This document shows, piece after piece, positions 306 to 19,847 of a stretch of DNA of 64,000 nucleotides; the first letter of the stretch is position 1; each line of letters opens with the position of its first letter. A program made the position numbers and the translations under genes. Source of the DNA: Clostridia bacterium (GTDB lineage Bacteria; Bacillota; Clostridia; Oscillospirales; CAG-272). The notes under the pieces were generated by a model. That model saw nothing but the letters and a program-made list of their open reading frames with translations, searched no databases and was not told the DNA's origin. The DNA lies in contig JAFUQQ010000013.1 of assembly GCA_017472285.1 (NCBI GenBank), positions 8,527 to 72,526 on the forward strand, given 5' to 3'.

Positions 306-335
306 TTGACGATGCGTGGATATTGGTGTTATAAT
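306..335 (+). promoter_or_regulatory. Sigma-A promoter of the small toxin-like gene
   Basis: TTGACG (306-311), 18-bp spacer, TGnTATAAT extended -10 (330-335). Confidence 0.7.
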
Positions 336-429
336 ATGCATCGGAGTTACCAATTTAACGGTGGCGGTTTCTTTCCTCGTTTCGAGGGAGGATGATCTTT
401 GCTCCCTCGAAAGAGAGGGGGTGATGTGC

Positions 430-573
430 GTGTACATGACATATGAACAGTTTTTACTGTTTTGTACGTTTATACTTGCGCTTTTATCGTATGTACATAC
501 GCTGTACATGAAAAATAATGATAAAAAAGATAACCGCCCAACTTCCCCAAGTTCCGGTTATCTTTTTAACTAG
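430..573 (+). CDS. Small hydrophobic peptide, putative type I (holin-like) toxin; start 430 GTG or 436 ATG
   Basis: SD GAGGGGGTG upstream; MTYEQFLLFCTFILALLSYVHTLYMKNNDKK has one transmembrane helix plus a charged tail; an antisense promoter and terminator overlap its 3' end. Confidence 0.7.
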   Translation: MYMTYEQFLLFCTFILALLSYVHTLYMKNNDKKDNRPTSPSSGYLFN

Positions 574-607
574 CAACGAGGAAGAGACCGTCATCGGTAA
601 CTCCTTC
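523..607 (-). ncRNA. Putative cis-antisense antitoxin RNA (about 85 nt)
   Basis: Minus-strand promoter TTGACT(642-637)-17 bp-TAAAAT(619-614); hairpin aaaaagataaccg...cggttatcttttt (524-567) has a U-tract on the minus strand. Confidence 0.6.
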
Positions 608-649
608 ACTTATATTTTATATCAAATGCGGGAAAAAGTCAATATGGTT

Positions 650-688
650 TATAAAAATCAGGAGGATTTTCATCCTCCTGATTTTTAT
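650..688. terminator. Bidirectional terminator between the toxin locus and rubrerythrin
   Basis: tataaaaatcaggaggat-tttc-atcctcctgatttttata perfect inverted repeat. Confidence 0.8.
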
Positions 689-698
689 AAAGTGAATA

Positions 699-1238
699 TT
701 AATAGTTTTCTGCTTTGATCTGGAAATAGCTCTGAGGATGTGCGCAAACGGGGCAGAGCTGAGGAGCTTTCTTGCCGACCATGATATGACCGCAGTTGGA
801 GCACTGCCATACCATATCGCCTTCGCGGGAGAATACGATACCGTCTTCGATATTTGCGAGGAGTTTGCGATAACGTGCTTCATGTTCTGCTTCGATCTTT
901 CCGACCATTTCAAAGAGAGCGGCGATTCTGGTGAAGCCTTCTGCTTTTGCATCTTCGGCGAAACCTTTGTACATATCGGTCCATTCGTAATTTTCGCCCG
1001 CTGCCGCATCCTTGAGGTTTGCCATTGTATCGGGAACACCGCCGTCATGAAGGAGTTTGAACCAGATCTTTGCGTGTTCTTTTTCGTTCTTTGCCGTTTC
1101 TTCAAAGAGTTCACCGATCTGAACGTAACCGTCCTTCTTTGCTTTGGAAGCGTAATAACCGTATTTGGTATATGCCTGCGATTCGCCTGCAAACGCTGCC
1201 ATCAAATTCGCTTCTGTTTTTGTGCCTTTGAGTTCCAT
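699..1238 (-). CDS. rbr: Rubrerythrin
   Basis: [20 protein letters not shown], di-iron ExxH motifs, C-terminal WQCSNCG...CPVCAHP rubredoxin-like domain. Confidence 0.95.
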
Positions 1239-1286: not shown

Positions 1287-2978
1287 TTATTCTTTAGGCA
1301 GTTCATCGAAAAGATGCTTCATACGGATGGTGACAGAGGATTCTTGCGGTGTGAATTCCGTCAGTGCCAACGTGAATTTCTTCTGGTCAGCGGGGAAGGA
1401 ACCGCGCATCGTTTCACCGTAAGTATGTTTCATGAAACCGCCTTCGATTTCAAAATATTGAGAACCGTTGATAAAATATCTTGCGTTTCCGTTCAGATAT
1501 GCATATGTACCGGCTTTGGGGGAGATGGCAATGCTGTCCGTCAGGAGCTTGCCGCCGACGGGAAGAATGATCTCGAATTTCGTGGGAACGGCATCGCAAC
1601 CGTTTGCGCGGAAATCAAAGCGGATACCGTCTTCAAGGATATGGATATCGATCTCTCTGTGGAGGTTCTGGATATTGATCGTGTCACGTTTGGAATGATC
1701 CATTCTGCGCCAATCGGAAGTTTCCGGTTTTTCGGCAAGCGTGGAACGATAGCCTGCTTTTTCGTCACCGATCAGACGGAACCCGTCTTCGATCTCGACG
1801 ATTCGGTTGGCGCGGAAGGGCGAATGAGGATCGCCGAAGAACGAGCCTGCATAACGGAATTGTACGATGGATGAACCGTAATTGAGCTGACAGAAAACGG
1901 GATGGCGCGTACAGAGCGCGGTGACTGTCGCATTCAGCTCGGGTTTATAAATTCTTGCGATACGGCTATGGGGAAGGAAAACGGTCTGATCTTTTGCGGG
2001 TGCCTTCGGAATGATCTTTTCAAATTTTTCTTCTTCTTCGGGATGGAGCAGAGAATAGATGATGAGATAATGATAATGCTGACCGTATTTTTTGAGGTAT
2101 TCATCATAATACGTGTCTGCCATATAAGCAAATTCGGGATTTTCATCGCGGAGCGCGAGGATCGCATAATAGGGATAATATTTCGCAATGGAATATTCGC
2201 CGCCCATATCCCAACGGGTAGAGTTAAGTGTATTGATGGTATGATCCGGCTCGATGAAGCTGAACATCAGGTTCAGATTACGTCTGGGGGGGCAATAATA
2301 TGCGTCGTTGCCCGAAAATTCTGCCCAGACAAGAAAAGAATAATCGCAAATGATATTATAAGATCCCGTGGAACGCTCGGTATATTCACCGCATTCATCG
2401 CAGTCGATGCCTTCCATCAGGAATTTATCGATGGTCGCCTGATATTTGGGATCTTTGATAAAATGATAAACGATGGATAGCGCGGAGCAGATGACCCAAC
2501 GGTGATTGGGTGTATGGAAACCGAGAGTTGCCATCGCATCGCCCATACGTTTCATAATTTCGAGATATTTATTGAAAAGCTTGTCCTCAAGGGGAGTGTG
2601 TTCGGTATATCGTTCAATGAGCGCGGCGGGTGCTAACAATCCTTGCGCGTGGAATGCGGTCTGCGCGGGGTCGTGGAAATTGGTCACGGCAAGATCGGCA
2701 GAGCCGTCTTCATGCAGATAGGCTTCATACATACAAAGGGATTCATACGCGTATTCCAGCATTTTTTCATCACGGTAATGCGGCGTACCTTTCGTATAAT
2801 AAGCGATGACGAGCATAATGGATTGCGAACCGAGATACATACCGTCCGGAACACCGCTTACGGCTGTATTGAGCCAGGTGTCATCAAGAACGGGATCTTT
2901 ATGCATCTTGTGGGTCTTGATGTAATCATCCGTTTTGCTACAAACGAAATCTCTGAAAAGCTGGTAATGGTTTCTCAT
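1287..2978 (-). CDS. Conserved hypothetical protein, possibly an alpha/alpha-toroid heparinase/lyase-like fold
   Basis: Long ORF; SD GAAGGAGG before ATG at 2978; motifs GFHTPNHRW, GEYTERSTGSY, NSTRWD. Confidence 0.55.
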   Translation of the reverse strand: MRNHYQLFRDFVCSKTDDYIKTHKMHKDPVLDDTWLNTAVSGVPDGMYLGSQSIMLVIAYYTKGTPHYRDEKMLEYAYESLCMYEAYLHEDGSADLAVTNFHDPAQTAFHAQGLLAPAALIERYTEHTPLEDKLFNKYLEIMKRMGDAMATLGFHTPNHRWVICSALSIVYHFIKDPKYQATIDKFLMEGIDCDECGEYTERSTGSYNIICDYSFLVWAEFSGNDAYYCPPRRNLNLMFSFIEPDHTINTLNSTRWDMGGEYSIAKYYPYYAILALRDENPEFAYMADTYYDEYLKKYGQHYHYLIIYSLLHPEEEEKFEKIIPKAPAKDQTVFLPHSRIARIYKPELNATVTALCTRHPVFCQLNYGSSIVQFRYAGSFFGDPHSPFRANRIVEIEDGFRLIGDEKAGYRSTLAEKPETSDWRRMDHSKRDTINIQNLHREIDIHILEDGIRFDFRANGCDAVPTKFEIILPVGGKLLTDSIAISPKAGTYAYLNGNARYFINGSQYFEIEGGFMKHTYGETMRGSFPADQKKFTLALTEFTPQESSVTIRMKHLFDELPKE

Positions 2979-3121
2979 AAACGAGTACCCTCCTTCAATT
3001 TGTCTTTTCGCAAGCATTTTACCATATCGAAAGAGAATAGTCAATGACATGAGAGAACTTTTTTGTATAAAATTGCTGTATACGGTAGAAAAAATCTTGC
3101 CGTACACAGCAGAAAGATGGT

Positions 3122-19049: not shown

Positions 19050-19498
19050 AAAAAATCGCTCTGATTCCCGGTACGTTCGATCCCGTTACGGTCGGACATA
19101 TCGAGCTTGTGAAATTTGCTTCCGCGCTTTTTGATGAAGTCGTGGTCTGTATCGGTATCAATCCCGCGAAAAAACATCTTTTTGATGAAAAAACAAGAAT
19201 GGAAATGCTGGAAAAAGCCATCGCGCCTTATCCGAACGTCAGGGCGGATTTCTTTCACGGTATGACGGCGGATTATGCGGTCGCGATCGGTGCAAACTAT
19301 ATCGTGCGCGGTATCCGCAACGAAACCGATGCCAAATATGAATTGGAAATGGCGGATTTTAATCGCAATTACCGTGGGATCCGCACGGTTCTCGTTCCCG
19401 CTTCCACGGAGATCGCCGATATCAGTTCCACACTCGTGCGTGAAAAACTCGCGCTCGGACAAAGTGTGGATGATCTCATTCCCAAGGATGTATTGTAA
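19046..19498 (+). CDS. coaD: Phosphopantetheine adenylyltransferase
   Basis: PGTFDPVTVGH, IVRGIR, ISSTLVRE; coupled to rsmD. Confidence 0.95.
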   Translation: MKKIALIPGTFDPVTVGHIELVKFASALFDEVVVCIGINPAKKHLFDEKTRMEMLEKAIAPYPNVRADFFHGMTADYAVAIGANYIVRGIRNETDAKYELEMADFNRNYRGIRTVLVPASTEIADISSTLVREKLALGQSVDDLIPKDVL

Positions 19499-19499
19499 G

Positions 19500-19532
19500 A
19501 AAATAACCGCGGAACATCCGCGGTTATTTTTT
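19500..19532 (+). terminator. Terminator after coaD
   Basis: aaaataaccgcgga-aca-tccgcggttatttttt. Confidence 0.85.
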
Positions 19533-19847
19533 ATTTTATAGCAAATTGCGCAAAATCGATCTCGACGTTTCGCTACATCCAAATGCGGAAACAACTGAGA
19601 TAGGCGAGAACTTGGGCGCGGCGACTCAACGCTTTTTGAAAAAATTTTAAAAAAATTTCAAAAAAGGTGAGATTTTTTTATCAAAATATCGACTAATGTA
19701 TAACCGAGCAGGTAAAATGGTTCGTTGAAACGAAGAAAATTACAAATCGGAAGCGGGAAATCGTCTGACTGCACCTCCAAAGGTGTTGTTCCTTGCCGAA
19801 GAAGCGTCTTTTTCCGAGCGAAAACAACCGTGAAAGGAGGATTTCCA

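Follow-up and report, generated by a model that had tools for sequence, protein, structure and literature searches.

Does the unannotated DNA at 306-688 of the stretch shown here encode a toxin together with its own RNA antitoxin, and if so, which of the known designs does it follow? The stretch, in the following called the window, comprises 64,000 nucleotides (nt) of contig JAFUQQ010000013.1 from a Clostridia bacterium (assembly GCA_017472285.1), and the locus in question lies between genes for an SPFH/Band 7 protein and a rubrerythrin, both of them housekeeping genes (Pfam). An earlier inspection of the letters alone (the sequence-only reading) had seen here a type I toxin-antitoxin module with two convergent promoters, a leader hairpin, a small single-helix peptide, a hairpin over the 3' end of its gene and a messenger RNA (mRNA) whose two ends pair with each other. 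Each of these features is found where it had been placed, and a chance origin of any of them looks unlikely. We consider the locus, with a probability of about 0.8, to be a chromosomal type I toxin-antitoxin locus of the TxpA/BsrG/SprG family (Pfam Hol_Tox) that is built like bsrG/SR4 of Bacillus subtilis. Comparison with other genomes supports the type I interpretation, as the peptide passes the Hol_Tox cut-off, the profile of its relatives matches SprG1, the helices are conserved and covary, and the antisense promoter is conserved. The sequence features themselves, the family membership of the peptide and the conservation and covariation of helices and promoters are established directly.

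The open reading frame (ORF) on the plus strand ends with TAG at 571-573 and offers three in-frame starts, ATG 424, GTG 430 and ATG 436, giving 49, 47 and 45 amino acids (aa), respectively. GTG 430 was chosen because the peptides of related loci begin with M-Y-(I/L/V)-T at the aligned codon, and the toxin ORF is accordingly placed at 430-573 with 47 aa. This agrees with the 45-47 aa single-helix peptide described earlier: a single hydrophobic helix (about 21 hydrophobic residues) is followed by KNNDKK and then by a tail of 14 aa. The peptide matches Pfam PF16935 Hol_Tox ("putative holin-like toxin") with 26.6-26.8 bits, above the curated cut-off of 23.3, and is the sole Hol_Tox match in its 2.6-Mb genome; the peptide of one relative (L105) reaches 27.2 bits. 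A profile of 46 relatives' peptides matches PDB entry 7ns1 (E = 1.9e-5), which is described as the 31-aa SprG1 toxin of the Staphylococcus aureus system sprG1/SprF1, found by homology to txpA/RatA (PMC8309996). Fozo 2010 equates the "holin-like toxins" with the type I toxins of the TxpA family, with 118 members, some of them in Clostridiales (PMC2887945). Every NCBIfam model stays below its cut-off for the peptide, ComI and PepG1 being weak matches only, and in Pfam the peptide matches no Hok-type family.

Relatives of the locus come from two sources. In a DNA search, 30 out of 301 genomes from the same taxonomic family gave matches, many only at the antisense-promoter stretch; L022, L025, L027, L029-L031, L034-L038, L044 and L045 were discarded as matches to that stretch without a locus. 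A pattern scan of a collection of species-representative genomes gave at least 121 stretches, and 77 of those listed yielded no kept locus, being mostly chance matches in unrelated genomes. Out of 66 candidate rows, eight were dropped as chance matches (L062, L065, L067, L072, L143, L154 and two L128 rows) and five because the peptide rule found no ORF in them (L010, L014, L050, L079 and the second L021 row); at least four of these five look like true family loci with a missed peptide. This leaves at least 53 distinct full loci, the window's included, to which all counts out of 53 refer. Their records are metagenome-assembled genomes (MAGs) or isolates from animal and human guts, labelled Clostridia, Eubacteriales, Oscillospiraceae, Ruminococcus, Lachnospiraceae or Eubacterium sp. 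CAG:180, while three loci stem from two bins labelled Coriobacteriaceae or Sphaerochaetaceae. Lachnospiraceae bacterium XBB2008 (L117) has a non-MAG record and may be an isolate. The 53 loci have one order of parts in common: promoter, 5' arm of a long helix, a segment resembling a Shine-Dalgarno (SD) sequence, an anti-SD segment, a strong SD (GGAGGTGAT-like), the peptide, a hairpin, the 3' arm and a reverse promoter. The peptides of the 53 loci are 22-47 aa long, usually start with M-Y-(I/L/V)-T and end with KKK, KKR or KKN; their 3' hairpin reads ATAACCGCC...GGCGGTTAT and is followed by the 3' arm, which is complementary to the 5' arm. A sub-group (L010, L041 and L042) has the same RNA frame with a different arrangement 5' of the hairpin, where a short hydrophobic peptide of 24-25 aa in another frame (e.g. 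MVTYEALFAFAMVLIALAALFIDRK in L042) is preceded by a further small ORF; the peptide-calling rule performed poorly on these three.

This layout is built around a long helix, here called P1, in which the 5' end of the mRNA pairs with its 3' part. The predicted transcript at 342-690 folds with -133.5 kcal/mol, while shuffled sequences average -78.3 (z = -9.46; none of 100 does as well), and its 5' end pairs with 570-604 in the minimum-energy as well as in the centroid structure, as the sequence-only reading had anticipated. The 5' arm (343-381, plus strand) consists of an outer part at 343-351, a bulge at 352-359 and an inner part at 360-381. The 3' arm (570-604, plus strand), to which fold, repeats and covariation all point, is entirely covered by the predicted antisense RNA. 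The complementarity seen earlier between the mRNA ends appears as two long-range repeats (343-354 with 593-604, and 373-386 with 570-583), both within this one helix, and the predicted duplex of the two arms amounts to -46.3 kcal/mol.

Homologs that do not keep the 5'-3' complementarity would have spoken against the earlier proposal; in our data it is conserved, with covariation, in the 53 loci. Inner P1 is paired in 95.8% of the alignment cells, with 8 of 15 pairs changed on both sides. Outer P1 was examined alignment-free by duplex energies, since MAFFT fails to align it column by column: cognate arms form duplexes of -47.9 kcal/mol on average (sd 5.0) and non-cognate arms of -38.6 (sd 7.7), and the cognate 3' arm ranks first in 13 loci and among the top five in 30 of the 53. 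Swaps are visible by eye, such as GGAGTTACC/GGTAACTCC in the window, GGAGTTGCC/GGCAACTCC in L011 and GGAAGCTGTC/GACAGCTTC in L105. Two conserved G-U pairs of P1 (G-U in 51/53 and 37/53 loci) imply that the helix forms in the mRNA strand only and is weaker than a perfect antisense duplex. RNAalifold applied to the 53-sequence alignment (A1) predicts inner P1, a hairpin of anti-SD and SD, and the 3' hairpin, with compensatory changes in 18 of 34 pairs. Over the whole of this consensus structure 95.3% of the cells are paired and 127 are changed on both sides; on none of five measures is it equalled by any of 500 shuffles, and in slid controls 39-64% of the cells are paired. Prediction and covariation thus both support P1 as part of a bsrG-type design, as far as such modelling can.

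Just inside P1 lies the leader with the SD. The leader hairpin noticed earlier at about 382-410 is confirmed at 380-412 on the plus strand, with arms at 380-390 and 402-412 (11 nt, 100% complementary). Its 5' side (GAGGGAG, 384-390) resembles an SD and its 3' side (CTCCCTC, 402-408) an anti-SD, and the 3' side can alternatively pair with the true SD. The SD region itself, GAGAGGGGGTGAT at 413-425 (plus strand), is read from the sequence and aligns with GAGGGAGGTGATG of the relatives. If the freed 5' segment, the SD-like segment, the anti-SD and the SD are numbered 1 to 4, the SD is paired with the anti-SD (3:4) in the RNAalifold consensus, and this hairpin is paired in 92.9% of the cells, with 5 of 7 pairs changed on both sides. 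The alternative hairpin 2:3, which is the one of the sequence-only reading, is paired in 77.4%, with 9 of 9 pairs so changed.

Accessibility of the SD was computed by folding from the predicted transcription start in 47 loci, six with a forward promoter below 9/12 being excluded. Its mean unpaired probability is 0.156 in the free full-length mRNA, 0.078 in an mRNA truncated after the hairpin and 0.071 when the 3' part is blocked as a mimic of the mRNA bound by the antisense RNA; 32 of the loci have a more open SD in the free mRNA than in this blocked state, 3 have a less open one and 12 show no difference. For the window, blocking the 3' part lowers the value from 0.36 to 0.04. Its minimum-energy structure has P1 and hairpin 2:3 and leaves the SD free when the mRNA is unbound; in the blocked state it has hairpins 1:2 and 3:4 instead, which enclose the SD.

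Two convergent promoters delimit the locus. The sigma-A-type promoter of the toxin mRNA (TTGACG-18-(TG)TATAAT, 306-335, plus strand) has 11 of 12 consensus matches and a TG extension, as had been reported; to judge by its sequence, transcription should start near 342-343 and would yield a toxin mRNA of about 350 nt. A forward promoter of at least 10/12 precedes the 5' arm in 45 of the 53 loci. The opposing antitoxin promoter, likewise noted before at 642-614, reads TTGACT-17-TAAAAT on the minus strand (614-642; 10/12 matches). In 43 of the 53 loci it is a perfect TTGACA-17-TATAAT and in 52 it reaches at least 10/12, whereas among 1060 shuffled flanks none scores 12 and 18 score at least 10. 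Its -10 box ends 14-25 nt past the conserved core of the 3' arm, i.e. at a nearly fixed distance. The signals of a convergent antisense gene, namely the promoter and a terminator hairpin with U-run, are therefore conserved; the antisense RNA itself is predicted. Within 150-1300 of the window, 7 promoter-like sites are seen and 2.0 are expected from shuffles. The spacing of the toxin promoter falls into two classes, its -10 box ending either 17-25 nt (the class of the window) or 30-44 nt before a conserved ACGG core, the latter in relatives such as L064, L068 and L047. In three inspected loci of the wider class (L017, L023/L064) the transcript would bear an additional small hairpin 5' of the long helix.

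The predicted antitoxin is a small RNA (sRNA) of about 85-90 nt on the minus strand (518-607, its ends deduced from promoter and terminator). Folded as 607-515, it has -28.7 kcal/mol (z = -2.94) and forms a 5' hairpin and a terminator hairpin. Its 5' end is nearly identical in sequence to the 5' arm of the mRNA, and its predicted duplex with the toxin mRNA, both from the window, reaches -173.9 kcal/mol. The terminator hairpin is the 3' hairpin at 524-567 that had been recognised earlier (SL3), with perfect arms of 13 nt at 524-536 and 555-567; together with a run of A at 523-528 it occupies 523-567 and matters on both strands. Read on the minus strand, the stem leads into a stretch of U complementary to A 523-528, so that SL3 is predicted to act as the intrinsic terminator of the antitoxin there, while on the plus strand it corresponds to the stop-codon hairpin of the relatives. 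SL3 is paired in 99.1% of the cells over the 53 loci; 2 of 8 pairs are changed on both sides, and its outer pairs covary. On the plus strand, a run of five T (563-567) stands at the end of the same hairpin, from which it follows that some toxin transcripts might stop there and never gain the 3' arm.

These parts and their order are those of bsrG/SR4, which is therefore the closest known system. Structure probing of bsrG mRNA was reported to show a long helix P1 formed by nt 1-35 and nt 232-262, with the SD placed in a 4-base-pair (bp) helix of the first stem-loop and the stop codon in the last stem-loop before the 3' arm (PMC3834814). According to the same report the terminator loop of SR4 first contacts the stop-codon loop of bsrG, and the duplex then extends into the 3' arm; upon binding, nt 1-33 of bsrG become single-stranded and the SD helix lengthens from 4 to 8 bp, and SR4 lowers bsrG translation besides causing RNase III-dependent decay (PMC3834814). 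Both systems have a small single-helix peptide with a Lys-rich end, a long P1 with an SD helix just inside it, a stop codon in the last hairpin before the 3' arm (here, in the relatives) and a convergent antitoxin, here a predicted one, over the 3' part. They differ in that SR4 is described as covering the toxin terminator in addition to SL3 and the 3' half of P1 (PMC3834814), whereas the predicted antitoxin of about 90 nt in the window starts between P1 and the toxin terminator and leaves the latter uncovered. Moreover, bsrG/SR4 resides in the SPbeta prophage of B. subtilis and the present locus in a gut Clostridia chromosome between housekeeping genes, where we describe it by sequence analysis only.

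Other systems are more distant. txpA/RatA of the B. subtilis skin element and sprG1/SprF1 of S. aureus have a toxin of the same Hol_Tox family (PMC2887945) and an antitoxin that overlaps the 3' end, and the txpA/RatA duplex is reported to be cut by RNase III (PMC6563280, PMC3834814). However, binding of RatA is said to leave the SD helix unchanged (PMC3834814), and sprG1 encodes two peptides from one frame. The CD-RCd pairs of Clostridioides difficile likewise live in Clostridia and combine small toxins with a Lys-rich C-terminus with an antisense RNA, but a 2019 review describes those toxins as lacking sequence homology to the B. subtilis toxin families (PMC6563280), unlike the present Hol_Tox-like family, which is spread over Oscillospiraceae-type gut and rumen genomes. 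The same review names Clostridium bolteae as the only place within Clostridia in which TxpA-like sequences were found (PMC6563280).

If the locus works as bsrG/SR4 does, events would run as follows; transcription, pairing of the RNAs in the cell, refolding, RNase III cleavage and toxicity are what we infer here. The first 39 nt of the toxin mRNA would pair with the stretch just past the ORF and form P1, and the strong SD could be closed by the anti-SD segment upstream of it. The convergent promoter would give rise to an antisense RNA, about 90 nt long, whose sequence is the full complement of the 3' arm of P1 and of the hairpin preceding that arm. The two RNAs would first touch at their complementary hairpin loops, whereupon the duplex would extend into the 3' arm and oust the mRNA's own 5' arm. 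The released leader would refold and close the SD more tightly, and the long RNA duplex would be cleaved by RNase III. In the absence of the antitoxin, a small membrane peptide harmful to the cell would be produced.

A more specific version of this scheme can be offered only tentatively. P1 may be permissive rather than a lock: with the 5' arm held, the SD-like segment would compete for the anti-SD and the true SD would breathe, until the antitoxin flips a switch of four segments that shuts the SD. The antitoxin would act as a copy of the mRNA's 5' arm without the bulge and with A in place of the wobble G, and would thus win the 3' arm. To this version also belongs the idea that the A-run before SL3, which has three roles, is a slippage hotspot that recurrently yields tailed and weakened toxins, as in the window and L131.

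The three roles of the A-run are the Lys codons, the U-tract of the antitoxin terminator and the frame of the stop codon within the stem: as the Lys codons before the tail are the U-tract on the other strand, a single run of A serves three purposes. In 42 of the 53 loci the hairpin arm TAACCGCC begins with the TAA stop codon, in 8 the stop lies 8-11 nt upstream of the arm, and only in 3 (the window, L131 and L042, the last with a doubtful frame) is the hairpin read through. KKR-type relatives have AAA AAA AGA TAA with seven A, while there are six in the window and in L131; as the usual TAA is then out of frame, the window's peptide continues through the hairpin to TAG 571-573. The tail that the sequence-only reading had noted after KK is therefore real and read through the hairpin; as a family trait it does not hold, being the outcome of a one-base difference in the A-run. 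The peptides of the window and L131 are quite different, which suggests that the change to six A happened on two occasions, and the run may be a hotspot of slippage. Ribosomal frameshifting was rejected as a source of the tail, since the window's frame corresponds to +1 with respect to that of the relatives and it is the DNA that differs. Contigs from two DNA runs are identical to the window at every base and support six A with word depths of 55 and 48, but the assembly may have been made from these very runs. Seven A are kept in the toxin-less paralogue of the window's own genome, which reads NNDKKR-stop.

Several observations weigh against our interpretation or narrow it. The 14-aa tail of the window is lacking in 50 of the 53 loci, and, as fusion of green fluorescent protein (GFP) to the C-terminus of BsrG was reported to abolish toxicity (PMC8309996), the tailed copy may be weakened. 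Only 12 of 46 relatives' own peptides match Hol_Tox at E <= 0.01. The pattern scan supplied 44 of the 53 loci, which makes the invariance of the bases of the pattern itself partly a matter of construction, though the 8 loci found by BLAST only have the same cores. Kinship among the loci makes the shuffle and Wilcoxon figures overstate significance; they describe the data and are not probabilities. In many loci even the free mRNA has its SD mostly paired (median unpaired probability 0.13). Helix 1:2 is paired in just 59.4% of the cells on the MAFFT alignment, with 7 of its 9 pairs changed on both sides. In view of this median and of the poorly supported helix 1:2, we hold the refolding step with moderate confidence; the modelled closure of the SD upon antitoxin binding agrees with the bsrG result.

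The tail raises the question whether the window carries a working module or a locus of the same type whose toxin is weakened or dead through the shorter A-run while the antitoxin is kept. Such a disarmed or decaying copy, which would modify our interpretation rather than exclude it, is a distinct if lesser possibility. Six A instead of the seven of KKR-type relatives, a TAA out of frame, the rarity of read-through (3/53 loci, one of them with the doubtful frame of L042) and the fate of the GFP fusion all fit it, and the toxin-less antitoxin copy in the same genome demonstrates that toxin loss does occur there. Nevertheless promoter, SD, start codon, hydrophobic helix and KK motif are intact, and the frame stays open for only 14 codons more and closes before the 3' arm. 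An assembly error is not evident, given the six A in both DNA runs, although these may be the source of the window. TxpA itself has a long C-terminal tail, so that a tail need not kill activity. A wider departure would be a small membrane protein gene under antisense control, with a peptide that is non-toxic at native levels and without any toxin-antitoxin role. Fozo 2010 reports that some candidate type I toxins were non-toxic and discusses other functions (PMC2887945), and the site between the SPFH/Band 7 and rubrerythrin genes, outside any recognisable prophage and without DNA matches in phages or plasmids, would suit such a gene. We regard this as improbable, because the tested family members TxpA, BsrG, SprG1 and EF3263 are reported to be toxic on overexpression (PMC2887945, PMC8309996) and because layered repression, a consensus antitoxin promoter, several copies per genome and toxin-less antitoxin copies are marks of type I systems.

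The analogy drawn by the sequence-only reading, with hok/Sok of plasmid R1 and aapA1/IsoA1 of Helicobacter pylori, captures the combination of long-range 5'-3' mRNA pairing with a small antisense RNA. In aapA1/IsoA1 the mRNA is inert until it is trimmed, and the antisense RNA acts at its 5' region. The same scheme is described for hok, where the pairing holds the mRNA inert until 3' trimming and the antisense RNA binds the 5' region (PMC3834814). Were the window to act in this way, the 5'-3' helix would keep the mRNA inert, trimming of its 3' end would activate it and the antisense RNA would bind the activated form; a conserved helix that includes the extreme 5' end, and the extensive pairing of the SD that many loci show when folded at full length, would be in keeping with it. 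The toxin families are unrelated, however, and the antisense RNA at 518-607 lies over the end of the ORF and the 3' arm itself rather than over the 5' leader or the SD, so that trimming of the 3' arm would also take away the target of the antitoxin. Folds without the 3' arm close the SD further (0.078 truncated vs 0.156 full length) instead of opening it. The analogy is looser than that with bsrG/SR4, to which the locus is closer in the placement of its antisense RNA, and we think an action of the hok or aapA1 type quite unlikely. Least credible of all is the idea that promoter-like sites, terminator hairpins and a spurious small ORF have come together here by chance. Promoter-like hexamers are indeed frequent in AT-rich intergenic DNA, and weak matches of our antitoxin model elsewhere in the window are ordinary terminators, but the fold (z = -9.46), a peptide above the Pfam cut-off and a layout kept with compensatory changes in 53 loci over many genera already refute chance, so far as comparative data can.

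Both the toxin family and the RNA architecture of the bsrG/SR4-like locus that we favour are already known, and it introduces no new principle. To our knowledge, TxpA/BsrG-family systems have been studied almost exclusively in Bacillus, Staphylococcus and Enterococcus. What our data add is that the family is widespread in gut and rumen Clostridia (the window locus and 52 relatives), and that a P1 and an SD-closing hairpin of the bsrG type have the support of covariation, where, as far as we know, the earlier basis was the probing of one B. subtilis mRNA (PMC3834814). The relatives can be used for annotating small genes and sRNAs in MAGs, and they constitute a natural series on how an antitoxin at the 3' end governs translation at the 5' end. 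A literature search on type I toxins in Ruminococcus, Oscillospiraceae or Faecalibacterium gave nothing relevant among the records listed, although the supplementary member list of Fozo 2010 may include related Clostridiales peptides.

In its immediate surroundings the toxin gene faces the rubrerythrin gene (699-1238, minus strand; Pfam), which is convergent with it. Between the two, an inverted repeat with a perfect stem of 20 bp (648-691, arms 648-667 and 672-691), present in the mRNA fold, is predicted to serve as a two-way terminator for both. Adjoining the rubrerythrin gene is an ORF of 606 aa (1290-3107, minus strand) without a Pfam match at E <= 0.001. Positions 340-610 gave zero DNA matches in the phage and plasmid collections, and an Rfam search of 150-800 at E <= 10 gave nothing meaningful, its top matches being hairpin-only matches to microRNA models far below their gathering scores.

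The spread of the antitoxin was followed with a covariance model (R1) of 87 positions, built from the 53 sRNAs including that of the window; its matches near 30 bits are unreliable. In the window's genome R1 finds two strong copies, that of the window with 68.1 bits and the toxin-less one on another contig with 59.4 bits. Among 151 sampled genomes of the taxonomic family 29 match at E <= 0.001 and 19 at E <= 2e-7. The highest number in any one genome was met in G001, where 7 of 8 R1 matches, down to 36 bits, pass E <= 1e-4. Matches on both strands at 19463-19570 of the window (about 31 bits) are an ordinary two-way terminator, AAAATAACCGCGG...CCGCGGTTATTTTTT, whose stem resembles that of the antitoxin.

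The toxin-less copy of the window's own genome (L002 1512-1640, G000:C69:10606-10743, minus strand) sits immediately past the terminator of an M18 aminopeptidase gene and has a promoter of its own, TTGACA-17-TAAAAT, while of the toxin just the last codons (NNDKKR-stop) are left. Its predicted duplex with the toxin mRNA of the window amounts to -90.4 kcal/mol, and it could therefore act in trans as a second antitoxin. Similar toxin-less copies occur in L015, L024 and L043, and L018 has a second sRNA in tandem. Full loci may also be present several times: one goat-colon MAG has four (L047, L061, L100 and L118) and another MAG three (L115, L148 and L159), which fits the usual multi-copy habit of type I systems.

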